This document shows positions 2,810 through 16,660 of a stretch of 64,000 nucleotides of DNA, in pieces (positions within the stretch are counted from its first letter, which is position 1; every line of letters starts with the position of its first letter). The notes below the pieces were generated by a model. It was not told the origin of the DNA, did not search any database, and saw only the letters and a program-made list of their open reading frames with translations. The position numbers and the translations under genes were made by a program. Source of the stretch: a virus; IMG/VR virus record IMGVR_UViG_3300050494_000042; one strand, written 5' to 3'.

Positions 2810-2845
2810 GCAGACACCCCACTGCAACGGGTTAGTAGTTGCAAC
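2810..2845 (+). repeat. Solitary CRISPR repeat, plus-strand copy
   Basis: GCAGACACCCCACTGCAACGGGTTAGTAGTTGCAAC, 25 nt before the ATG of a plus-strand ORF. It is the exact reverse complement of 30601-30636. Confidence 0.9.
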
Positions 2846-2870: not shown

Positions 2871-3104
2871 ATGCAATACATCACTGTTCACGAAATTCGA
2901 GGAGGGGAGGACACCATAGCAGGAACTATTTCCTTCGACGGAAGGCACCTGATCCCCAACCCACCCCATGACCCTGTCCTGATTCGGTTGATTGAGGATG
3001 TTCAGGGATCTCCTTACCCCCTTGATGATTTACACGCCAAGTTCCGGGGAATCTACCTTCATACATCCCCACCCCAGAACGTCGAGAATGTCCAGCCTGC
3101 TTAG
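2871..3104 (+). CDS. Hypothetical protein (77 aa)
   Basis: MQYITVHEIRGG... begins just downstream of the solitary repeat and converges on the kinase-domain gene. Confidence 0.55.
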   Translation: MQYITVHEIRGGEDTIAGTISFDGRHLIPNPPHDPVLIRLIEDVQGSPYPLDDLHAKFRGIYLHTSPPQNVENVQPA

Positions 3105-4948
3105 GTCGGGTACGCCAAATGTGCCACGTAGTGATGCCGTCCTGACATGACGTTATCGTATCGTCTCTTGACGTGACCAATCGCTTCCGGCTCAATTCCG
3201 TGATGGTGCAATTCCGATTCAATCTCTGGCCACTTTCCCGCCAATGGGGTCAGATCCGGCATCCGCAAGCGATTTTGGGCAGCGTGATCTAAGATTTCCC
3301 TGTTCGTGTGGTTATCTTCCGCCTCGTCATCGGTCGGGAACGACAAGCCGTGATCGATCAGGACCAACTTGCCTTGCGGGGACACCAACCAGTTCCCCAT
3401 ATGCCTATCGGTGTTGCCAATCAAGTAATCGAATACTGCTGCCCGTGCCGCGTCGGTGTCCCCATCGTACTCGCTTCCTCGTGGTGCTCGGAAAGCGACC
3501 TGACCGTCCATGAACTGCTGAATCGATCCAATCTCGCCGTTGTGGTTCCGAACCGTCGTTGGGGGGACTAGGTCATGCATTCCAATGACGTCTGCCAGGG
3601 CTGATGCGGCAGCTTCCCTTCGGTAATGCGTTCCAGGCTGAATAGCTGACCGCAGAGGATGTTCCCCGTTGCTCGGCTTGAAGACACCCTTCATTCCCCC
3701 TGAAAGGTGAAGCAGACGCACTTCCTTCGGATCTTTGTGACCGATGGAGGATTCCTGCTCCGCGTTCAGTTGGGAGAGCATTTCCTTCTCGGGACTCAGT
3801 GGACGTCCGGATGTCGTTTGTGTGGGCTGGACGTTCTGTGGCGTGGTGGAGACGAGATTACGGAAGATATCCCCGTGGGGGTCTTCATCGTGCGATGGTG
3901 ACGCTCCCAGTGCCCTGACCGTGTGAGCGTACTCGGGTCCGGACAGGGAACCCAAGTACGATTCGAGGTAGTGCTTGAAGTTAGGCTTGCGGGCTGCATC
4001 CTGAATGTTCTGAACGTGTTGGGGGACGTTGGTGGGCTGGGAATCAGGTGGAGCATCATCGTATCGACTCGCTGCGAAGAAGTCCTCTGGGATGGTTTCA
4101 TTGGGACGCCAATCGACTTGGTCGGGTTCGTACTCTAACTTGTGCAAATTCCACTGATTCTGACCGCTTGGCTGGTGTGCAAAATCTGCCTCCGGGTGAT
4201 CCAAAAAAGCAATCCTTCCATTTCCCGCGAAACCATTGTTGGAAGCCCATCTTTTCCAAGAGTCGTGCAGCATTCCCACACTCACCTCGGGATGATTCCC
4301 GATTACAGACCCAAAATGCTTTCGGAGCCAGGCCTGACGTCCCATCAGTGCAGGTAGACTTTCCGCAGGAACATCCCTAGCTACAACTCGATGAGTCAGA
4401 GGACTCGAATATTCCAATCGGGAATAACGTGAGTATCCCCACTCTTCGGAATCAGGCACAGGATAGTTCGGTTGGGGCTGAACAGGCTGTTGTGGGGGGA
4501 CGTAAATTCCTGGTGCGGGTGGATTGTAAATCCGCTTCTTGGGTGCGTAAATCGGCTGATTGGTGGGCTGCACGGGTGGAGGAAGTTCACAGTCGTCGTA
4601 GAGGCTTAATTGTTCCGGAGGTTGTGCCAGTGACCAGAACTCAGCTTTAGGTCCACTCCCACCCGCACGATTACTTCTCCTGTCCACTGTGAAATGTCCT
4701 TGATTCAGTCCGTGGGACAGAGCCGCGTCGAGTGACGGACCCCATAGTCGAATCTTCTGAACGAGAGCTTTCTTGGTGAGTTCCCCGTGATTGGCAAGCG
4801 TCTGGTGAACCAGGGAAAACACTTCCTCCGGTGTCTTCTGTGCCCGATTGGTGACGTATCGTTTCTGAGCCGCAGCCCCCTGCTGACGCCGACGCTGATC
4901 CAAGAACGCTTGGACTTCGGGTGTCACGACTTTTCGGGGAGTGGGCAC
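3101..4948 (-). CDS. Multi-domain protein with a C-terminal PI3/4-kinase-like (HipA-like) domain
   Basis: GVFKP, REAAASALAD, LVPPT, GSIQQF, FDYLIGNTDRHMGNWL, IDHGLSFP. Confidence 0.75.
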   Translation of the reverse strand: MPTPRKVVTPEVQAFLDQRRRQQGAAAQKRYVTNRAQKTPEEVFSLVHQTLANHGELTKKALVQKIRLWGPSLDAALSHGLNQGHFTVDRRSNRAGGSGPKAEFWSLAQPPEQLSLYDDCELPPPVQPTNQPIYAPKKRIYNPPAPGIYVPPQQPVQPQPNYPVPDSEEWGYSRYSRLEYSSPLTHRVVARDVPAESLPALMGRQAWLRKHFGSVIGNHPEVSVGMLHDSWKRWASNNGFAGNGRIAFLDHPEADFAHQPSGQNQWNLHKLEYEPDQVDWRPNETIPEDFFAASRYDDAPPDSQPTNVPQHVQNIQDAARKPNFKHYLESYLGSLSGPEYAHTVRALGASPSHDEDPHGDIFRNLVSTTPQNVQPTQTTSGRPLSPEKEMLSQLNAEQESSIGHKDPKEVRLLHLSGGMKGVFKPSNGEHPLRSAIQPGTHYRREAAASALADVIGMHDLVPPTTVRNHNGEIGSIQQFMDGQVAFRAPRGSEYDGDTDAARAAVFDYLIGNTDRHMGNWLVSPQGKLVLIDHGLSFPTDDEAEDNHTNREILDHAAQNRLRMPDLTPLAGKWPEIESELHHHGIEPEAIGHVKRRYDNVMSGRHHYVAHLAYPT

Positions 4949-4956
4949 GGATTACC

Positions 4957-5652
4957 TCAACTCGGAATTTGCTGAACAGGAACAGGCTCCTCATAAGGAG
5001 CATTGCGGAGTCTTTGAATCATCTGCTCATAGTTCTGCCAATCGTGGTCACCCCAATCTTCTGGATCACCGTGCATATCAACTGAATTGACGACTTCATT
5101 AGCCAGGTGATTCCCCAAATTCGACAGATGCACGTCTGCGTGGTAGTGGGGTTCGGTCCCGCTTGTATCTGCCGTCACAACACGCAGGTGATTACGTGGA
5201 ATTTTCTTTCGATACGCTTCTGGTTCCACCATGTCTTCAGGACGAAAGTTTCCCCTCATTCGATTGTTCATGATATGCAATTCCGGGAACACTCCCGGCT
5301 GATCGATATTCTGGTCAATGTGATCGAGAGCGTTCTCGATGTGCTCGGCAGTGAAGCGTCCTGGAACAATCCGCCCTTCATGCAAAATAACGTGTTGTTT
5401 GGGCTGTCGAAGTAGTGCAGCTTCTTGCCCACGACCCGACTCTTCTAGGGCGTCCGCCAATGGCCCTCGAACCCCGTGAAGTGGCTCGTTCTCACCCCAT
5501 CGGTGGGGGTTATTGTCTGGATGATTCAGTTGCCCCATCATATTGTTGATGGTGTCCTGATCCGCGTACTGGGTTTGCTGGATTGGCACGTCCCCCCGAT
5601 GGCCACGTTGACCGTGAAGGGGACGATGGAAAATGTCCTTGATGATGCCCAC
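4957..5652 (-). CDS. Hypothetical protein with a TIGR02996-like motif
   Basis: 231-aa ORF with LADALEESGRGQEAALLR; start uncertain. Confidence 0.55.
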   Translation of the reverse strand: MGIIKDIFHRPLHGQRGHRGDVPIQQTQYADQDTINNMMGQLNHPDNNPHRWGENEPLHGVRGPLADALEESGRGQEAALLRQPKQHVILHEGRIVPGRFTAEHIENALDHIDQNIDQPGVFPELHIMNNRMRGNFRPEDMVEPEAYRKKIPRNHLRVVTADTSGTEPHYHADVHLSNLGNHLANEVVNSVDMHGDPEDWGDHDWQNYEQMIQRLRNAPYEEPVPVQQIPS

Positions 5653-5684: not shown

Positions 5685-5770
5685 TTTACTCCTACGAACC
5701 GGGAGTAATCGGTGTATGCCCGGAACAACACTCAGTTGCAACTACGAACCCGTTGCAGTGGGACTTTACC
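5685..5770 (-). repeat. Two-unit mini-array (near-consensus repeat plus variant-C repeat)
   Basis: GGTAAAGTCCCACTGCAACGGGTTCGTAGTTGCAAC (5735-5770, overlapping the upstream stop TAA), a short spacer, then ACACCGATTACTCCCGGTTCGTAGGAG. Confidence 0.8.
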
Positions 5771-6299: not shown

Positions 6300-6364
6300 T
6301 TTGCAGCTACAAACCCACTGCACTGGGATACCCAAACACTACTATACGATTCCCCATTTGGCAA
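6300..6364 (-). promoter_or_regulatory. Promoter immediately followed by a solitary repeat
   Basis: TTGCCA-N17-TAGTGT (6364-6336), then GGTATCCCAGTGCAGTGGGTTTGTAGCTGCAAA (within 6300-6335). Confidence 0.75.
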
Positions 6365-9300
6365 ATACCCGATGTGTCTCCGGGAACTTCTGCTTCAGGG
6401 TTTCCCTTCCGTTGGGGGTCGCATGGGCAAGTCGGAAGGCTTCCCCGAATCCTTCGGTTGGGTCAATGGCAGAATATTCGTTCAAGTTCCCACTCTTGAT
6501 TTCCTTGTGCCAGGCTTTCTTCCACTCATCCGATGTCGAGAGTTGGTGGTATCCCCCTTCCTTCCCCGCAGGATGGGACCAATCAAGTGCATGGGCGACT
6601 TCATGGGCCAGGACGCCCATCGGGTCATTTCCCCCCGCGTGGAGGTGAACGTGCCCCACATCCGGGTCGTGGAAGCCGTTGGGGGCTGTGAACTGACTGT
6701 TCGGGTCATCCGCAGCCTGTCCCGTGGCCTTCGTCCAGTGATTCCCCACATGCTCCTGTGACTGATGCGAAACGATGTGACTCAGCCTGCCTTGTCGGAG
6801 TCGTTCGATCACGTTCGGTGAAAAGCTCTTGAGCATGTCGAACGTCTGTCCTGCCAGGTGAGCAGCCTGATCCGGATCTTGGACGTGGTGAACCAGAGCA
6901 TTCGCGATGGAAGACGCGAAGGTATCGTGATTCGTCCAATCGACGGGATGGTGAACGCTGCCAGTGTCTTGTTGCTGCTGGGGCTGTGCGTCATCGTATC
7001 GGGACGCCTGGGTCGGAGGTTGCTGTGTTCCCAGATTCTTGACGTATGCTTGCCGGAACGCTTCCTCCATCGCGTGACGGGATGGCCATGCAAATGTCTG
7101 CGTCGAATCATCCCACCTGCCGTGATGGGGCTTCACCTTGCCGTCTGGGTCGGCCTCCCCGGTCCATGCCCACGTTTCACCGGGGATGTGATATCCAAAG
7201 TTCTCAACTCCTTTTGGGAATCTCCCGTCGTTCGTCCCATAAGCAAAACCCCCCGGTGAGGCGACAACCCACGGTCGATCCGCGAATTCCTGCTGTCGGT
7301 GTCGTGGGATTTTCGGTGGCTTCCAGGTGGAATACCATTCCCCGAGATTCCTTCGGAATTGAGCTTCTTCTGGCTGGCCGTTCTCTTCCAGGAAGTCCGC
7401 GTATGCCCCATGCGTGGTGTATTCGTGGGGATTCTCGTCAATCTTCCGCTCGAAGTCCTCGGCGGTAGGTTCCATGTACATAGCCGGTTTCGGATAACCC
7501 GAGAATCCCGGCTTGCGTGGTGGGGAGTGCTGGAACATCACAGAGCCAGGAATGTATTGCCCCTTCCGGTAGGGTTTGTCACGATACGTCATTGCGACCG
7601 GAGCTTGACGACGCTCGTACCTCGTGAACCCAATCGGCTGTTGGGGTTTCCTCCGATCCTGTCCGAACGACGGAATGAAAGTGTTGTTTCCTCCAGGGAA
7701 ACCCATGTATCGCTGATGACCCAACACGGGACCATTCACCGGGGGAGTCCCTGGTTGCTTCCCTGACGAAAAGAATTGCATTGGAGGGCTGATTCCCCCT
7801 CCTGGCGGAACAGCGTGTCCTGGCATCGGTCCGGGAATCCCCGCAGGGGAGGGAACCTGAGCCAGTTGCATTGGTGGGGCTGTGGGTTGCACGCCCATCA
7901 TCATGCTCGGATCGAGGGGACTTCCAGGAGGAACCGGTCCCTGTCCTGGCATCCCGTCCGGAGGCATCACGGGGGGAAGTTGTCCCATCTGCGGCAATTC
8001 CGGCCCCTGTGGACCCATTTTGGTCACGATGGTGGGTCCACCGGGGAACGCCTGAATGACGACCTCATCCCCCTCTTCTGGTCGGGAGAAATCACCCGCT
8101 TCCATCAGTTCATCGAGCTTGATGTACCCGCCCATGCTCAAGATCAACTTGCCCGACTGGACTTTCTCTTTCTTTTCCAAGTCGGGGAGGATGCTCTTGA
8201 ACCTGACCGGGAACTTTGCCCACGGGAAGTTGTACTTCTTCAGGGGAGCCAGAAGATCGTTAGTCAAAACTTCGTCAAGACGATTGGTGTCATATACTAA
8301 CAACTCATCCTTCGTTGCTCTCGAAAGCTCGGCACGTCCGGTGCCTCCAAGCCCATCCCCCTTATCCGCTCCGGAGGACATGCTCTGACCAACGAACAGC
8401 CTCTCAATGTGTCGGTCGAAGAAGTCCCTCACCAAGTCTTGAAGTGCTTTCAGTCCAGCACTGTTCATCTGGATCTGTTCGACTGCATTCCAGTTCTGGT
8501 CAGGACGACGCGGGCAAACAATTGCAGCTTTCCCAATGATTTTGTTGGCGTTGATTTCTGCCTGGAGCTTCCCGGCTGCGTCCCCTGCGGGGTAATTGAA
8601 AACGAGCAGGTCCATCTGCCCGATGGCCTGCATGTAAGTGATCATCCAGGTCAGGGCGTCGGTACGAAGGACATAGAGCCAGTACACCATTCCCCGCAAA
8701 CCCAATCCCTGAATACTACCCGCTAAGATTCCCTCGAAGAAGTCGGCTGGTTCCCGAACGTGCTGATGGATCACAAACCGTTCTCGCCACTGTTCCCGTT
8801 GAAGGACAAGGGCACATCCACCCCGGTCGGTGTAACGTAGATCCCCGTCCCCCCATGTTTCAGCCTGAATGCCTTTGTCCTTGTCGAAGGATTCCTTCCA
8901 GTCCCCACCCCACTTGGCTCCGTGGTTGGCGTACCAGGAGGTAGTCATCGAATCCATCAAGATCGCGGGGATGCCATCGAAGGTGTACTGGATGGAATCG
9001 CCGTGAACGGGGCTCCACGTCTGGTCTTTGCATCGCTGATTCTTGCCGTAGACCCAGAAGTTGTTGCAGTCAGGATCACGCTGGAAGAATCCCTGCACGG
9101 CGGATCGACCGAACCACACTCCTTGTAGAAGTGACCACTTCAACATCGAGAACTGTGGAGTAGATTCCACGATCTTGGTCATGGAATCCCGAACGTACAT
9201 CTGCTTGCTGTCGCGGTCATCATCGACCTCTATCCTCCAGTCGCGGTTCATTGTCGGTAAAAGTCTCTCCCACAGAAGCCCCCACAGGAACCCATCCCGT

Positions 9301-9542
9301 CGCATGGCCCTGGCATTTACGTAACTGTCACGCATACTCTCATCAAATTTGCTGCTGAACATTCTCTGAGCTGCGTTATATACCGCCTGCACAGCATGAG
9401 ATGGAGGAACTAACAAACGACCATTACCTATCATTGGCGAGCCGTCTGGAAGCGTGAAGTCCTCCAGCTTGAAGTTCTTCCGAGGCGGGACAGCCCTGAA
9501 AACCTCTAAGTCTTTTGCCAGGTCGTCAATGACGGTGGGCAT
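6342..9542 (-). CDS. Portal protein (DUF935/Mu gp29-like) fused to a Pro-rich linker, a TIGR02996 domain and a HEXXH zincin domain
   Basis: N-terminal ~500 aa are portal-like (LLQGVWFGRSAV, RLFVGQSMSS, NDLLAPLKKYNFP). Then FERKIDENPH...YADFLEENG and C-terminal LAHEVAHALD...EGFGEAF. Genomic context is a packaging module. Confidence 0.65.
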   Translation of the reverse strand: MPTVIDDLAKDLEVFRAVPPRKNFKLEDFTLPDGSPMIGNGRLLVPPSHAVQAVYNAAQRMFSSKFDESMRDSYVNARAMRRDGFLWGLLWERLLPTMNRDWRIEVDDDRDSKQMYVRDSMTKIVESTPQFSMLKWSLLQGVWFGRSAVQGFFQRDPDCNNFWVYGKNQRCKDQTWSPVHGDSIQYTFDGIPAILMDSMTTSWYANHGAKWGGDWKESFDKDKGIQAETWGDGDLRYTDRGGCALVLQREQWRERFVIHQHVREPADFFEGILAGSIQGLGLRGMVYWLYVLRTDALTWMITYMQAIGQMDLLVFNYPAGDAAGKLQAEINANKIIGKAAIVCPRRPDQNWNAVEQIQMNSAGLKALQDLVRDFFDRHIERLFVGQSMSSGADKGDGLGGTGRAELSRATKDELLVYDTNRLDEVLTNDLLAPLKKYNFPWAKFPVRFKSILPDLEKKEKVQSGKLILSMGGYIKLDELMEAGDFSRPEEGDEVVIQAFPGGPTIVTKMGPQGPELPQMGQLPPVMPPDGMPGQGPVPPGSPLDPSMMMGVQPTAPPMQLAQVPSPAGIPGPMPGHAVPPGGGISPPMQFFSSGKQPGTPPVNGPVLGHQRYMGFPGGNNTFIPSFGQDRRKPQQPIGFTRYERRQAPVAMTYRDKPYRKGQYIPGSVMFQHSPPRKPGFSGYPKPAMYMEPTAEDFERKIDENPHEYTTHGAYADFLEENGQPEEAQFRRNLGEWYSTWKPPKIPRHRQQEFADRPWVVASPGGFAYGTNDGRFPKGVENFGYHIPGETWAWTGEADPDGKVKPHHGRWDDSTQTFAWPSRHAMEEAFRQAYVKNLGTQQPPTQASRYDDAQPQQQQDTGSVHHPVDWTNHDTFASSIANALVHHVQDPDQAAHLAGQTFDMLKSFSPNVIERLRQGRLSHIVSHQSQEHVGNHWTKATGQAADDPNSQFTAPNGFHDPDVGHVHLHAGGNDPMGVLAHEVAHALDWSHPAGKEGGYHQLSTSDEWKKAWHKEIKSGNLNEYSAIDPTEGFGEAFRLAHATPNGRETLKQKFPETHRVFAKWGIV

Positions 9543-9561
9543 GATGAGTCACTAAATAAGA

Positions 9562-9600
9562 ACAAGCGGGTCGCGGGTTGTGGTCCCGACGCCCGCTTGC
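9562..9600 (-). terminator. Stem-loop after the repeat-flanked cassettes, before the portal gene
   Basis: AAGCGGG...CCCGCTT followed by GTTCTTATTT on the minus strand. Confidence 0.45.
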
Positions 9601-9660
9601 TACGAATTGTACCATCTCGATGTGAAGAAACTACAGAGAAGTGACGTGCTTTCGCTTCTA

Positions 9661-9743
9661 CTTCAATCGACCCGAAGCAGTGGGATTGTCAGATACTACA
9701 GCGACGAGTTGCAACTACTAACCCGCCACGGTGGATTGCTTGT
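9661..9743 (-). repeat. Mini-array: degenerate array-type repeat, 17-nt spacer, variant-B repeat
   Basis: CAAGCAATCCACCGTGGCGGGTTAGTAGTTGCAAC, TCGTCGCTGTAGTATCT, GACAATCCCACTGCTTCGGGTCGATTGAAG. Confidence 0.8.
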
Positions 9744-10017
9744 TCAGCTTCGGATCGACCTTCGTGGGTGTCGGTACGGGTTCCACCGTCGTCTTCGACT
9801 TGATGTAGTCCGCACACGCCTTCAATAACTGCGACGTCTGGCCGTAGAAGAACGCGGGGGAAGGATGTCCTGCCATCAGAGAACCACCCAGAGAGGCTTC
9901 TGCTTGCCGGTCGATGCCGGATGCCGTCTCGTCACACATTTTGATGAGCACAGCCGGATCAGTCAGATCCGGTGCTCCGGGGAAATCCAATCGAGGAAGC
10001 GGGGATGTCTCAGTCAC
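9718..10017 (-). CDS. Hypothetical protein bracketed by repeats
   Basis: RBS AGGAG before GTG 10017; the stop codon lies inside the 9708-9743 repeat. Confidence 0.6.
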   Translation of the reverse strand: MTETSPLPRLDFPGAPDLTDPAVLIKMCDETASGIDRQAEASLGGSLMAGHPSPAFFYGQTSQLLKACADYIKSKTTVEPVPTPTKVDPKLNKQSTVAG

Positions 10018-10052
10018 GAAAATGGTCTCCTGTTGTTGAAATTTACTGTCTG

Positions 10053-10140
10053 CTTCAATTGACCCGAAGCAGTGGGATTGTCCGCCAGACACGATCCTTC
10101 ATCGCCTTCACCCCTACAAACCGGGAGCAATCGGTTGTTC
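10053..10140 (-). repeat. Mini-array: variant-C repeat, ~28-nt spacer, variant-B repeat
   Basis: GAACAACCGATTGCTCCCGGTTTGTAGGGG ... GACAATCCCACTGCTTCGGGTCAATTGAAG (29/30 identical to the 9661 copy). Confidence 0.8.
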
Positions 10141-10395
10141 TTGACTCTTCGCCAACGTCTCCAGTGTATTCCCACCCGACAGCAAAGCACAGACGATCTT
10201 TTCCACGAAGAGTGGGGAAAGTTCATACTGGCCATGCTGATTCAGGGCGTAATACACATTCTTCCCTGACGGTTGGAGAGGCTGTTCCCCTTCCACCTTC
10301 GGAAGGGTGACGCCCTTGAAGTTCTGGAGTTGGGCAAGAATCTTGGCGAGTCGTTGGGACTCTTGCCCCACAGCTAACATATCAATCGGATTCAT
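10114..10395 (-). CDS. Hypothetical protein directly after the CRISPR array
   Basis: RBS AAAGGAG lies within the 28 nt after the last repeat; the stop TAG lies inside the variant-C repeat. Confidence 0.65.
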   Translation of the reverse strand: MNPIDMLAVGQESQRLAKILAQLQNFKGVTLPKVEGEQPLQPSGKNVYYALNQHGQYELSPLFVEKIVCALLSGGNTLETLAKSQEQPIAPGL

Positions 10396-10423
10396 TCATT
10401 CTCCTTTGGTGGATCGACTGCCG

Positions 10424-10898
10424 GTTGCAACTACTAACCCGTTGCACTGGGATTGTTACGTCTCTTCTGTGTGAGGCACCAACCCAGCGGCTTGTGGTTG
10501 CAACTACAAACCGGTTGCACTCGGTATGTCACGCCGACGCCGAGCAGTTGGCGGCACTCGAACGCAAGTTGCAACTACAAACCGGTTGCACTGGGATTGT
10601 TACCTAGCTTCGACTTCCGTGCCGCATTCATTGCTTCGCCCCTCGATTGCAACTACTAACCCGTTGCACTGGGATTGTTACGATGCTTGTGCTGCTTGTG
10701 GTTGTCCACTCGAAGATGTTGCAACTACTAACCCGTTGCACTGGGATTGTTACCGAAATAAAGGTTCGGGAACTCTGCCATAGGCGCCGTTGCAACTACT
10801 AACCCGTTGCACTGGGATTGTTACAGCCGTCGCCAGGTCCGGCGGCACGAGGAGGCCGGTGTGTTGCAACTACTAACCCGTTGCACTGGGATTGTTAC
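10424..10898 (-). CRISPR. CRISPR array, 7 repeats and 6 spacers
   Basis: 36-nt repeat GTAACAATCCCAGTGCAACGGGTTAGTAGTTGCAAC at 10424, 10497, 10568, 10646, 10718, 10789 and 10863. Spacers are 35-42 nt; the leader-distal repeats at 10497 and 10568 are variants. Confidence 0.97.
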
Positions 10899-10902
10899 TG
10901 CC

Positions 10903-10931
10903 ACTCTACAACACGCCCGCTTCCCAAGCAA
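10903..10931 (-). promoter_or_regulatory. Array leader promoter
   Basis: TTGCTT-N17-TAGAGT, with the -10 box 4 nt before the first repeat. Confidence 0.7.
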
Positions 10932-11020
10932 ATTATTCCTGTTCCGCGAGCGGTTCCCAATTTGACCCATGATCCTTCACATTGAACCCCTATCAAGCGG
11001 GGGGTCATCGCCTGGAAATC

Positions 11021-12925
11021 CTAGACGCGAGCGGGTACTTTCGCCCCAGAAGCCCCCAAAGCCCTGTTTAACAAGTTCGTGGCGGCATTCACTGCCCGAT
11101 CCCTCTTTTCACCACCACAGGACTCGCAGCGAATCCAGCGGCCCGACTTCGGGTGGTCACACGATTCCCCACACTGACAACACGTCGTCACGATGTTCCT
11201 GGCGGACTCAGTAACTTCGTTCATGTATCTTGTTATCTCGTCCCGGAGTTGGGCACAGGAAGACAGTGCCCGATATCGCTTGTTGACGATATCGTTCCCG
11301 TTCTCGACTTCAGGATTCTCAGCCAACTTGTTCCAGTCAATTTCCGCGATCACCACGTCCTTGTACTGATAGCTCAGGTCAATCGCCACTTTTCGGAAGA
11401 AATCCTTCCGCCAGTTCTTGATCTTGTCCCGCTTGTGTGCCCTCCAGTCGCACAGGTGTTTGCTCTGCAAACGCCCCCCGGTGTACTGATTCCTTCCCGT
11501 GGTTGGGTTGAGTTGGATTCTCCCCCACATTCTTTGGAAGATCTCTTCGTCTCCGGGAATCCGATGATCCTTCCACCACCAAATGAGCCACATGAACCTG
11601 TCGGCACTTCGCCACTGAATCAGAGTCTGGGCACGCTCGGTCCACTCTTCGGGAAGGGGATTCGGGTAGTTCACGAACCAGTCGACCAGTTCAGCCCTTT
11701 CAGCTTCAAACAAGGTATCCCGAATGGACTGGAGGGTGTCAAGATAGGACCACCCCTCCACCAATTCTTTGGGAATACGGACGGTTCCGGTCACACCATC
11801 ATCACCAACCCACTCGGTAACGCGGATTTCCCCATCAATCAGACGCCAACCCAACGCCACCGCGACAGTCCCTTCCTGTGCCCGATCCTGTCCGGCCGGG
11901 TGATACGTCCACGCATCCCGTGCGATGTCGAACTGAACATCCCACCGGTAATGAGTTCCAATCTTCCTGCGGGACAGGTGAACCCACTTCACTTCACCGT
12001 CTTCGGGGAGAGGACGCGACATGACAGCCGGAATCGACGCCATCACCGGCTTTCCCTTTTCGTCCGACGATACACGAAAGTGGATGACGACGTACTTCGG
12101 ATGGGGAGCCGTCAGCGGTGGTTGATACGTCCTTTCGATCCAGCAATTCGTGTTGGGGGTGAAGACATCACAGGTCCGAAGAGATGACCCCCCCACGTGA
12201 GCGAACGTTGGCTTCTTGCTGCGTGGATGGATCTTGGGATTGCCTTTGGAGTCCAAAACTGGCTCCTTCGGGGATGTCTTGTCGGGCTTCCGTTGGAACT
12301 GAACCGAGATAACTTCCTCCCCCCGCCACGACTTGAACTTCGGGGGTGGGCCGGTTCTCTTTACACGTCCCACCACTTGCAGGGAAGTAGCCCAGTACAA
12401 CCCACCTTCCACCGCCGCGTTGCGGGCATCTGCCTTTCGTTGTTCAAACGACTTATCGTTGTCCTTCAGGTCGGCTTTCACCTTCGGGTCGGCAAACGCG
12501 GCGTCCCGCTGATCAGAATAGAACTCCCATGCCTGGGACACCACACGCTTCTGAGCGTTGATTTGCTCCACTAGTTCGGGGTCTGACATCAACTGCCGGT
12601 TCTGACTGTTCGACTGGCTGAGTTCATCCCGAAGCTCCTGGAGGCGTTCCTGCTGCTCCTGGGCTGCGTTGTGGAGGGTCGTCAGAGCCGGAAAGTGTCT
12701 GACCAGGATTGGGTCGATGGCTTCCCTGCGGGCACGCTCGATTTCTACCAACTTGTTCTGGAACTGGTGAGCGAGCTTCATCTGGGTAACTGCCAGGTCG
12801 TGTCCATCGAACCTCTGACGGAGGGCTTTCGTGCCGTCAGGATTGATTTCACGCGGACCGGAAAGGAACCCCCGGCAACCGTAGTTGTACTTGCGAGTCG
12901 GTTTGCTCTTGTTACCGAATGCCAT
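11021..12925 (-). CDS. cas12m: Type V-M (V-U1) Cas12m-like effector, RuvC predicted inactive (634 aa)
   Basis: Motifs recalled from Cas12m: QMKLAHQFQNKLVEIE, GLYWAT, ISVQFQR, TVAVALGWR, QWRSADRF, zinc finger CCQC..CESC, DRAVNAATNLL. Adjacent to the array. The start at 12925 is supported by a GGAG RBS and an upstream promoter. Confidence 0.85.
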   Translation of the reverse strand: MAFGNKSKPTRKYNYGCRGFLSGPREINPDGTKALRQRFDGHDLAVTQMKLAHQFQNKLVEIERARREAIDPILVRHFPALTTLHNAAQEQQERLQELRDELSQSNSQNRQLMSDPELVEQINAQKRVVSQAWEFYSDQRDAAFADPKVKADLKDNDKSFEQRKADARNAAVEGGLYWATSLQVVGRVKRTGPPPKFKSWRGEEVISVQFQRKPDKTSPKEPVLDSKGNPKIHPRSKKPTFAHVGGSSLRTCDVFTPNTNCWIERTYQPPLTAPHPKYVVIHFRVSSDEKGKPVMASIPAVMSRPLPEDGEVKWVHLSRRKIGTHYRWDVQFDIARDAWTYHPAGQDRAQEGTVAVALGWRLIDGEIRVTEWVGDDGVTGTVRIPKELVEGWSYLDTLQSIRDTLFEAERAELVDWFVNYPNPLPEEWTERAQTLIQWRSADRFMWLIWWWKDHRIPGDEEIFQRMWGRIQLNPTTGRNQYTGGRLQSKHLCDWRAHKRDKIKNWRKDFFRKVAIDLSYQYKDVVIAEIDWNKLAENPEVENGNDIVNKRYRALSSCAQLRDEITRYMNEVTESARNIVTTCCQCGESCDHPKSGRWIRCESCGGEKRDRAVNAATNLLNRALGASGAKVPARV

Positions 12926-14651: not shown

Positions 14652-16660
14652 TTTCGTGCTCCTGTCGCAAGAACGGTGTCTATCAACGAAGGTGCCCGAT
14701 TGAGTTCCTGCTCCGACGCTAACTTCTCGTCTATTTCCTTGAGTGGAATCACGGACATTCGGCAGTAGGTATCGTCCACTCCAAGAGAAATGAACAGATT
14801 GCTTCCGTGAACCACAGCCCCACCAGGCCAGCAAACGAACCGCTTCACCACGTTGTCATTGTCTTTGCTGTCTGGCCAAAGCAAAGGAGTTGGTGTCTGT
14901 CTCCAGACATTGAACGGTGGTTCGGGATTGAATGCCACACAGCCAGCGGAATACACACTGCCTTGCAGACGCTTCCGGCACCCGTGTACAATTGACCACA
15001 TCTCGTAACGCTGTTCCTTCTCACTCCACACTTTGATCGGGGACGCTCCACCTCGAATGACCCCACCTGCCCAGGGCAACTTGTTCGGAGTACGCCACGT
15101 CTGGCGGTCGGACATCACGATCATTTCCGGCTTGTGTGCGTAAACCCAGTGAATTTTCCCGTTGTGCTCCCACGCGACCCAGTTCTTCTCATACTTGTTA
15201 GAATTTGGTGACTCGAATACGAAGGTGTCCTCGATGCTTTTAAGGTCATCTGCGAACCGGACGTATCCGACCTGCACCAGCTTCGGGGGATACCCGTCCG
15301 GCAAACTGAATGAAGCGTGGAGTCTGCCTTCGTACAGAAACAGTCGGGGGTCTTCGAGTCGGGTGGCCTGAGCGTGTTTCGATGCCAGCGAGGATACAGC
15401 CGTCACAGACCATTCCCCAAGCCAGTCTTCCTGGGTGTTCTGCAACACCCAAATTCCAGTACGGCTATGACCCCAACTGTCCCGCGTGGCGAGGATCAAT
15501 TGCCCCCGATACTCTGCCACCGAACAATTAAAGTGTCCGTCCGGAACGGGAAGTCGAGTTCTTTCTACGTCAGGTGTCACGAACTGTCGGTATTCACACG
15601 TCTCGCAGGATCGCACAGGAACGTCGGCTTCCTTGATTTTGGCCCCCACCTTCGTGAAGCAGTGATCTCCGTAACGACCACACTTCGCCAGAGGTATCGT
15701 CCTTCCCCCTTCCAGGACACCGATTTCGTTGCTCCACTCCGACCGGTACATACAGGGAAGTGGGTCCGAATATTGGAGTATCACCTGATCCATCTCCGGG
15801 GTGATGTGAAGAGGATCTTGAATCTCCCGTCCCGTCAGGAGTGCCTGGACGTCCCCGTGGTGCCTGCTCTCCGTGACACCGAGGGGTAACGATGGTTCGC
15901 TGCTACTAACCCGCTGCGATGGGTCTGGGGCAGTTCGTGTGACATTTCCATCGGAATTAACCCCCGATAGTGGGTTGTCGCTAACGTCGATACAGGATGG
16001 TGCCCATTCCGGTTTCCCGGTGCCTGCGTAGTCGAATGTTCGCTGCGTTACAATGGACGGGAGGACCGCACACCAGTTCAAAAGTCCCTTCTTCAGGACA
16101 CGTTCCCAGAGTTGCTGATCCAGGTTCCGGTGTGCCGCCCGCATGTGCTCCAGAAGAACCGGGAGAGCACGTCTGCGGAGCATAATGGCGTGTGTGCCGA
16201 AAGGTTCGTTTAGTCTGCACAGACGCGAATCAGGCAATCCAATGCGTTCCGTCACCTTGTTCCAGCAATTAGGCTGCACTTCTGCGGAGCCGAGAAACAC
16301 CAGATCCCACTCCGGGAAGTCGGAATAGAGTTGGCGTTGGAGCAGTTCCAGTTCAGTGTGGTAGTTCTCAGGGAGGGAGACGTCGTCCTCGAAGATGATG
16401 TATTCGTGATTGTCGCGATGAACCCACTCCTGACCCGACAACCAGATGTGCTGCCAGAGATTCCACGTCGAAAGGTTGAGAGAGACGTGACCAGACGGCA
16501 GGTGCTTTCCCGGCTCGTATTCGAGTGTGGTGGAAAGTCCCCAAGTACGTCCGTGGCTGGCCTTCCAGTACGTCGCGTCAATCCCCCGCTCTGCAAGGTG
16601 TTCCTTGCAGGCTTGGGTTCGTTCGGGAAGCTCTTCGCAGTGAATCACATAATACTTCAC
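14648..16660 (-). CDS. Glycosyltransferase family 25-like domain fused to a GH130-like/beta-propeller glycosidase domain
   Basis: N-terminus YVIHC..ERT, GHVSL, YIIFEDD, GTHA; C-terminus LEDPRL, EKNWV, RGGASP, YSAG, WPGG. Confidence 0.6.
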   Translation of the reverse strand: MKYYVIHCEELPERTQACKEHLAERGIDATYWKASHGRTWGLSTTLEYEPGKHLPSGHVSLNLSTWNLWQHIWLSGQEWVHRDNHEYIIFEDDVSLPENYHTELELLQRQLYSDFPEWDLVFLGSAEVQPNCWNKVTERIGLPDSRLCRLNEPFGTHAIMLRRRALPVLLEHMRAAHRNLDQQLWERVLKKGLLNWCAVLPSIVTQRTFDYAGTGKPEWAPSCIDVSDNPLSGVNSDGNVTRTAPDPSQRVSSSEPSLPLGVTESRHHGDVQALLTGREIQDPLHITPEMDQVILQYSDPLPCMYRSEWSNEIGVLEGGRTIPLAKCGRYGDHCFTKVGAKIKEADVPVRSCETCEYRQFVTPDVERTRLPVPDGHFNCSVAEYRGQLILATRDSWGHSRTGIWVLQNTQEDWLGEWSVTAVSSLASKHAQATRLEDPRLFLYEGRLHASFSLPDGYPPKLVQVGYVRFADDLKSIEDTFVFESPNSNKYEKNWVAWEHNGKIHWVYAHKPEMIVMSDRQTWRTPNKLPWAGGVIRGGASPIKVWSEKEQRYEMWSIVHGCRKRLQGSVYSAGCVAFNPEPPFNVWRQTPTPLLWPDSKDNDNVVKRFVCWPGGAVVHGSNLFISLGVDDTYCRMSVIPLKEIDEKLASEQELNRAPSLIDTVLATGARK
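15896..15931 (-). repeat. Repeat variant embedded in frame in the interdomain linker
   Basis: GACCCATCGCAGCGGGTTAGTAGCAGCGAA, nearly identical to the copy in the cas12m leader. Confidence 0.7.

Follow-up and report, generated by a model that had tools for sequence, protein, structure and literature searches.

Copies of a phage's own Cas12m repeat bracket and terminate two conserved genes upstream of a Mu-type portal gene

The 64,000-nucleotide (nt) stretch of DNA analysed here, hereafter the window (IMG/VR virus record IMGVR_UViG_3300050494_000042), is a phage genome segment whose genes lie mainly on the minus strand. One of them encodes Cas12m, a CRISPR effector, and is followed by its repeat-spacer array and by two small open reading frames, ORF1 and ORF2, each of which ends inside a copy of the repeat. 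Judged from gene order in related phages, the ORF1-ORF2 pair is ancestral and always located directly upstream of the Mu-type portal gene in this phage group; on the same comparison cas12m, the array and the repeat copies are newcomers into a pre-existing operon. We consider this descriptive and evolutionary account to be very probably correct. The complete reading, in which the old core pair was invaded by repeats, shares one transcript with the array and is acted upon by Cas12m through the repeat units, is favoured at somewhat better than even chances. The elements concerned are as follows.

11021 to 12925, minus strand: cas12m, 634 amino acids (aa), with the RuvC-I aspartate changed to Ala; matches Cas12m of PDB 23vw (E value 1.3e-43)
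10899 to 10996, minus strand: array leader with two promoter-like sites (promoter scan)
10424 to 10898, minus strand: CRISPR array of seven 36-nt repeats and six spacers of 35-42 nt
10424 to 10459, minus strand: last repeat of the array
10396 to 10423, minus strand: 5' untranslated region (UTR) of ORF1, 28 nt, occupying the guide position of the last repeat
10114 to 10395, minus strand: ORF1, 93 aa, ATG at 10395, stop TAG at 10116-10114
10107 to 10142, minus strand: repeat unit of variant C, covering ORF1's final 9 codons and its stop
10049 to 10084, minus strand: repeat B1 in the 36-nt register (10049-10082 as 34 nt)
10018 to 10048, minus strand: 5' UTR of ORF2, 31 nt
9718 to 10017, minus strand: ORF2, 99 aa, GTG at 10017, stop TAG at 9720-9718
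9708 to 9743, minus strand: repeat unit A', covering ORF2's final 8 codons and its stop
9657 to 9692, minus strand: repeat B2 in the 36-nt register (9657-9690 as 34 nt)

An earlier note on this DNA had described ribosome-binding sites, both ORFs, stops within repeats, two copies of repeat B and a hairpin, and every one of these elements is present where it was placed. The Shine-Dalgarno sequence of ORF1 is AAGGAG (10406-10401), 5 nt before the start, and that of ORF2 is AGGAGA (10031-10026), 8 nt before the start. A gap of 22 nt separates the ORF1-terminal unit from B1, and one of 15-17 nt separates the ORF2-terminal unit from B2. The stops do lie inside repeat-like units, but the unit at the end of ORF1 is a conserved variant, C, and not a worn array repeat. 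Likewise, repeat B is present twice, but is not special to the locus, being one of several structure-preserving variants across the window. The description of the ORFs as 'giant spacers' continuing the array does not hold: the inserts (282 and 300 nt) are conserved coding sequence older than the array, the gaps between the flanking units measure 15-22 nt, and these units are variants B and C.

The window-like layout recurs in three relatives. In L001/L002, the order is cas12m, four repeats, ORF1, a unit, B, ORF2, a unit, B and a hairpin. The X6 contig (the P0002 contig) begins inside the array and continues with ORF1 and ORF2. In L086, a contig of 103.7 kb, cas12m has its stop in the first repeat and is followed by three spacers and by an ORF1 homologue, which starts 29 nt past the fourth repeat and ends in a repeat. 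Three further units with gaps of 32, 14 and 10 nt lie between this gene and the ORF2 homologue. Next comes a 109-aa gene whose end lies in a C-type unit, and then a promoter-like box, a hairpin and the portal gene. Repeat units hold the stops of three L086 genes (cas12m, the ORF1 homologue and the 109-aa gene), and the unit copy at the end of ORF2 in L086 is decayed. The distance from unit to start codon is 28-32 nt in five of six cases; the 5' UTR of ORF1 measures 28 nt in the window, 29 nt in L086 and 32 nt in L001.

The pair is also found without the CRISPR system. The L090 contig encodes an orthologue of the window's 719-aa GT/GH130-like protein (45% identity), with homologues of ORF1, ORF2 and Portal_Mu directly after it, with no Cas12m match in its 14 kb and no repeat units. 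The structure scan returned 2 matches in L090 (1.95 in shuffles), compared with 27 in the window (3.15 in shuffles) and 15 in L086 (0.35 in shuffles). On the short contigs L088, L092 and L093, the homologues of ORF1 and ORF2 abut or overlap, and no repeat units were found. Units occur where cas12m occurs and are absent in L090. Because ORF1, ORF2 and the portal gene stand together in L090 without cas12m or units, and because the two genes abut in the short contigs, the pair is taken to predate the system, and its link to Cas12m is, among the contigs compared, confined to one sub-lineage made up of the window, L001/L002, the X6 contig and L086. In the proposed history, a block consisting of a Cpn10-like gene, a 202-aa gene, cas12m and the array would have been inserted upstream of ORF1-ORF2 in this sub-lineage; copies of the scaffold would then have colonised every operon boundary, overwriting the last 7-9 codons of genes and donating stop codons. 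Relatives with and without the system allow a gene-by-gene comparison of the states before and after repeat invasion.

The replacement of gene ends is legible in the proteins. The loop motif GUAG is nearly invariant across the units, and one reading frame only meets its UAG. ORF1 ends in QPIAPGL in the window, in QPSAAG, QPSATGS or QPSVE in relatives and in NASATA in L086; ORF2 ends in QSTVAG in the window and QPSATG in L001, and the cas12m product of L086 ends in MASATA. The tails in the cas12m-free relative are different and unrelated to the repeat. Since the gene tails are translated repeat, the original C-termini have been replaced by repeats. In L086, the first repeat (5220-5257) holds the cas12m stop and no leader is present, so that the cas12m mRNA and the precursor of the CRISPR RNAs (pre-crRNA) would be one molecule, from which processing would remove the stop of cas12m.

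The units belong to one family with a common predicted fold. In the array repeat, a 3-bp stem (CCC/GGG) can interleave with a second helix of 6-7 bp (TGCAAC/GTTGCA), giving a pseudoknot in the same register as the scaffold of Cas12m2, in which positions -22 to -17 pair with -8 to -3 (PMC10442227). Repeat B keeps the CCC/GGG stem and has a 7-bp arm pair, CTGCTTC/GAAGCAG, in which two A-U pairs of the second helix are flipped and a seventh pair is gained; B1 and B2 differ at 2 of 34 positions, a match for which none is expected in shuffles. B-like units are also found at 15947, 18700 and 49769 and grade into other variants. Variant C has the stem CCG/CGG and pseudoknot arms TGCTCC/GGGGTG; it recurs at 5685, 49708 and 54500 of the window, and an almost identical C unit ends the 109-aa gene of L086 (6636-6671). 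In L001, the unit at the ORF1 end is undamaged and its arms covary. Unit A' shares its 3' 18 nt exactly with the array repeat, and its 5' pseudoknot arm, decayed in the window, is intact in L001 (2276-2311). Taken together, units A, B and C show the Cas12m scaffold fold over all 10 of its pairs.

A fold alignment was made of 43 units from the window, L001 and L086. In this alignment 92.1% of cells are paired, as against 70.8% in shuffles, although this percentage is inflated since part of the units came from a scan that requires pairing. Changes on both sides occur in nine of the ten pairs, and the covariation score is 0.576, as against 0.177 in shuffles (0 of 500 reach it) and only 0.04-0.14 with slid partners. 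Two findings do not hinge on how the units were selected: between lineages the stem flips from CCC/GGG to GCC/GGC, and the arms vary at homologous places. The units thus keep, as far as sequence comparison can tell, the stem and pseudoknot of the Cas12m scaffold through compensatory changes, and because they do so, they most likely act as RNA. All but one of the copies are on the minus strand, which holds most genes here; the exception on the plus strand, at 2810, overlaps a predicted plus-strand ORF.

Further unit copies were noted elsewhere. Identical 36-nt units stand on opposite strands at 2810-2845 (plus) and 30601-30636 (minus); the identity ends at the unit, and the flanks are unrelated save for a TGTAAT-like box about 18-25 nt upstream. 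The 719-aa GT/GH130-like ORF contains two scaffold-like units (15896-15931 and 15947-15982), which do not interrupt it but are translated in frame into linker, APDPSQRVSSSE and NPLSGVNSDG; the orthologue in L090 has a shorter, unrelated linker at this place. A 22.5-kb contig (run X2) contains an exact 30-nt copy of 10105-10134, which belongs to the C unit, and a copy with 4 mismatches about 4.8 kb away. The flanks of these copies are unlike the window, so that C-type units also occur elsewhere in this or a co-occurring phage.

Both ORFs are real genes under purifying selection. Against the 92%-identical L001/L002, dN/dS is 0.25-0.28 for ORF1 and 0.11-0.18 for ORF2. Homologues of ORF1 were found at 92, 67, 60, 39 and 32% identity; their pattern of conservation is protein-like, and an indel of 13 aa among them keeps the reading frame. 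ORF2 belongs to an unnamed family of about 90-120 aa (at least 82 clusters at E<=1e-3), whose core PDLxDP...GM.QQA...GHP.P.FFY, helical hairpin and Pro-rich tail it shares. The AlphaFold2 model of ORF1 has two long helices and a small beta insert (helix, beta, helix; predicted local distance difference test, pLDDT, 72.8), and that of ORF2 a helical hairpin whose Pro-rich tail is disordered (pLDDT 80.3). The homology search proposed by the earlier note led to no named family and no fold match: neither protein has a match in Pfam, PHROGs, PADLOC or NCBIfam; the ORF1 model found nothing in the PDB at E<=0.001 (Foldseek) and, in the wide VIA search, only generic helical-hairpin rows with Z<=8.5, within the stated noise; and the ORF2 model found nothing below E 0.1 in BFVD and no usable match in the ESM Atlas. 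Long tetratricopeptide repeat (TPR) proteins among the ORF2 matches look like generic resemblance between one helical hairpin and a TPR unit and were not taken as homologues. A double-stranded RNA-binding fold for ORF1, suggested by an alpha-beta-beta-beta-alpha order, was dropped as no fold search supported it. Complex prediction for ORF1 with ORF2 gave a score of 0.02. No relatives were found in an IMG/VR scan with Cas12m and with the ORF1 alignment, and the sole metagenome match of the latter (L003) was a false positive, a eukaryote-like gene on the other strand. The fixed place before the portal gene suggests a role for the pair in head assembly or packaging.

The effector itself is a clear Cas12m that would be nuclease-dead by its sequence. 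The RuvC-I motif AIDLGWR of 23vw aligns to AVALGWR in the window protein, with the loss of the aspartate, and the L086 orthologue (68% identical) also reads VAVALGW. No adaptation genes were seen near the locus. Spacer 2 of the array (10754-10788) matches a gene of the phage itself (60712-60746, minus strand) at 28 of 35 positions, which fits a spacer that was taken from a related phage's copy of this gene or is directed at it. The first spacer of L086 (5258-5292) is antisense to the RuvC-III coding region of L086's own cas12m (5173-5207) at 31 of 35 positions; the 5' flank of this match, ...GTTC, hints at a TTC-like protospacer adjacent motif. The spacers thus appear, from these matches, to target relatives, and the arrays may target the cas12m of rival relatives.

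The two promoter-like sites of the leader are TTGATA-16-GATCAT (10996-10969) and TTGGGA-17-AATAAT (10960-10932). The promoter scan gave no further promoter-like site from the leader down to 9300, and no promoter-like or terminator-like site was found between the leader and the hairpin at 9561-9601. As the 28 nt before ORF1 leave no room for a promoter and no such sites intervene, ORF1 and ORF2 would be carried on the pre-crRNA transcript. Co-transcription with the pre-crRNA, as proposed by the earlier note, thus follows from the anatomy of the locus, to which the absence of a leader in L086 also belongs. The predicted transcription unit would run from the leader promoter through seven repeats and six spacers, ORF1, C, B, ORF2, A' and B to the terminator-like hairpin.

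Pre-crRNA is cleaved by Cas12m at a site in the repeat that lies upstream of the scaffold, and RuvC is not needed for this (PMC11013384, PMC10442227). Since this cutting does not depend on RuvC, a RuvC-dead Cas12m could still process RNA, and release of the ORFs by processing at the repeats is plausible by analogy. The phage Cas12m would bind the units on the RNA and cut just upstream of each scaffold, as on pre-crRNA, detaching the crRNAs from the mRNA. After cutting, the ORF messages would begin with a 5' handle held by Cas12m 28-32 nt before the start codon, and the ribosome-binding site would be positioned at +18 to +23, where a guide of 17-20 nt would have its far end. Cutting at the unit that ends a gene would sever the coding sequence 6-7 codons short of its stop and give a stop-less message. 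Because the stop is the UAG of the scaffold loop, which the upstream cut removes, processing and normal termination would be mutually exclusive. Cas12m activity would in this way be coupled negatively to how much ORF1 and ORF2 is made and, in L086, also to the amount of Cas12m. A bolder extension, that the repeat has been turned into a general RNA punctuation for core genes and that Cas12m is mainly an RNA-binding or RNA-cutting regulator of mRNAs with negative feedback, is tentative, and we think it rather doubtful.

Several observations speak against an action of Cas12m on conserved units, in addition to the pairing-dependent recruitment of part of the alignment. The X6 contig has lost half of the unit B that separates ORF1 from ORF2, so that this unit is unstable in evolution, and the loss of the 5' arm from the A' unit of ORF2 in the window also counts as instability. 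In L086, the last unit is 45 nt, not about 30 nt, before the start of ORF2. Cas12m2 makes base-specific contacts to its scaffold (PMC10442227), and since the loop and arms of B and C are unlike those of the array repeat, a single Cas12m may not recognise these two variants. Unit B has, as an alternative, a plain 9-bp hairpin that competes with stem I. Finally, the cas12m-less side of the comparison consists of one 14-kb contig and three contigs under 1 kb.

Another explanation for the units, to which we assign a minor but real chance, is passive colonisation: the copies would be selfish or recombination-prone sequence, or patches of homology for module exchange between co-infecting relatives, with no regulatory effect on ORF1 or ORF2, and the stops within repeats would be insertion accidents. 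This would account for the varying number and kind of units between ORF1 and ORF2 (two in the window and L001, fused in the X6 contig, four in L086), for the decay of some copies (9708-9743, and the ORF2 end in L086) and for the two units that are read through inside the 719-aa ORF. Moreover, a stop is present in only one of the three frames of a unit, so that use of the same frame is automatic once the stop lies in a repeat. It does not, however, explain why compensatory changes keep both helices over 43 units of three lineages, which points to selection on an RNA fold and not on DNA only, nor the strand bias, with all but one copy on the minus strand, nor the recurrent spacing of 28-32 nt before starts. 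About half as probable is that the pairs formed by a terminal unit, a gap and B (10049-10142 and 9657-9743) are regulatory mini-arrays, whose crRNAs with short guides of 15-24 nt would steer a binding-only Cas12m to some promoter, whether in the phage itself, in a rival phage or in the host, in the manner of CreA or cr-like RNAs. The geometry of known regulatory mini-arrays, two degenerate repeats flanking a short pseudo-spacer (PMC10120712), is indeed present at both places, the heteroduplex optimum of Cas12m2 is 17 bp (PMC10442227), and the 15-nt gap after ORF2 differs at one position between the window and L001. Nevertheless, one mismatch in 15 is no better than the background of the locus, which is 92% identical, and the gap after ORF1 is not conserved (22 nt in the window, an unrelated 10 nt in L001, absent in the X6 contig). 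No target at <=20-25% mismatches was found in the window, L001, L086 or L090, either for the short gaps or for the sequences after each unit, and no pseudo-spacer complementary to a promoter, as in CreTA, was matched in the window or the related loci searched.

Two other proposals appear very improbable. Repeat B might serve as a decoy RNA, like the RNA anti-CRISPRs (Racr), against the Cas12m of a rival phage or the host; it differs from the array repeat in pseudoknot arms and loop and is the more stable hairpin (-12.2 vs -7.4 kcal/mol), and solitary repeats of phages are known as decoys (PMC10651486). Yet exact-match patterns revealed no B- or A-type array, either in IMG/VR or among prokaryote genomes (one per species), and the matches obtained were single, scattered and due to chance: the repeat-pattern scans of IMG/VR gave chance matches or none, and the genome scan for the repeat core gave 76 single scattered matches, 0 of them with the 3' arm. 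In addition, B-like units stand elsewhere in the window and grade into other variants, and B is half-deleted in the X6 contig. We give equally little credence to the earlier note's suggestion that ORF1 and ORF2 are CRISPR-linked cargo, array-borne cassettes encoding an accessory factor, an anti-CRISPR or a toxin. The ORFs are embedded between repeats and co-transcribed with the array by its anatomy, are small and match no named family, and their linkage to cas12m extends to L001, the X6 contig and L086. On the other hand, the pair occurs with the portal gene in L090 without cas12m or repeats, and is juxtaposed or overlapping without units in L088, L092 and L093, so that the proposed linkage to Cas12m loci fails in these four contigs; the ORF2 family is broad, with 82 clusters; and the position just before the portal gene is fixed. 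Neither co-occurrence nor the families of Pfam, PHROGs, PADLOC and NCBIfam place the pair among anti-CRISPR or accessory genes. The cargo proposal is thus largely refuted by gene content in L090 and the short contigs, and position beside an array alone is insufficient to call small genes anti-CRISPR or accessory.

Beyond the ORF2-terminal pair of units, the region leading into the portal gene contains the following features.

9606 to 9633, minus strand: promoter-like box TAGTTT-N16-TACAAT, read by eye and under the threshold of the promoter scan
9553 to 9601, minus strand: terminator-like hairpin (9561-9601) with U-run (9553-9560), before the portal start at 9542
6342 to 9542, minus strand: Mu-type portal gene encoding a fusion protein of 1066 aa (PF06074, E value 4.5e-28)

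The hairpin at 9561-9601 has a predicted energy of -26.3 kcal/mol (z = -4.9) and is followed by UUCUUAUUU; hairpins at the equivalent position have z values of -5.1 in L001 and -3.2 in L086. A matching box, TAGTTT-N17-TATAAT, is present at the equivalent place in L086 (about 6690-6765, with the hairpin), and in both phages the box immediately precedes the hairpin. This hairpin may serve a late promoter as leader attenuator and not just mark the end of the array operon. In the portal fusion, a long Pro/Gly-rich region comes after the Portal_Mu domain and leads to a C-terminal match to PF07737 (E value 1.5e-7), the family of the anthrax lethal factor N/C domain, with a metalloprotease-like fold. 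Both the window (3101-4948) and L086 (12054 to the end) encode a protein with a PI3/PI4-kinase-like domain, separated from the portal gene by a few genes on its downstream side. Besides the portal protein, the gene set of the window includes a family-A DNA polymerase, ThyX, UDG and RecA-like and gp32-like proteins.

Compared with characterised type V-M systems (MmCas12m2 and GoCas12m; PDB 8hhl, 8hio and 23vw), the window has a clear Cas12m effector and a 36-nt repeat with stem and pseudoknot in the register of the Cas12m2 scaffold, in a family that needs no trans-activating crRNA. It differs in that the system sits in a lytic-type phage genome, that the RuvC-I aspartate is lost, and that repeat copies extend beyond the array to bracket and even terminate protein-coding genes. 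Type V-M systems of phages or prophages are already known, and so are viral solitary repeat units acting as RNA anti-CRISPRs (Racr; PMC10651486) and viral mini-arrays (PMC11656645). Decoy action and the guiding of self-regulation are known roles of standalone CRISPR repeats. The window shares with the viral units the phage repeat copies outside a regular array, some as two-repeat pairs with short gaps. In contrast, the known Racr units mimic host repeats and are small non-coding RNAs, whereas the units in the window copy the phage's own Cas12m repeat, would lie on mRNAs, overlap stops and precede starts by about 30 nt; no host array with the window repeat was found in one genome per species. 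CreTA and other repeat-like regulatory elements in cas loci (Shmakov et al. 2023; PMC10120712) are likewise standalone or paired degenerate repeats beside cas and cargo genes, conserved between related loci, and a binding-only effector could regulate through them. They act, however, via a spacer partly complementary to a promoter, a target of which none was found here; the genes flanked in the window are core phage genes, not cas genes or toxins; and the action proposed in the window is on the RNA itself. In the literature we found no description of repeats bracketing and terminating ordinary protein-coding genes on a crRNA transcript. Engineered single transcripts join an mRNA with crRNAs and are cut by Cas12a or Csy4. 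As in these constructs, guides and coding sequence in the window would share one RNA, separated by repeats cut by the effector; the constructs are a laboratory design, whereas the window arrangement would be natural, with the stops inside the repeat. If Cas12m does act on the units, a natural Cas effector would have been recruited for the post-transcriptional control of virus core genes, and the locus would be the natural counterpart of the engineered transcripts that carry both mRNA and crRNAs.

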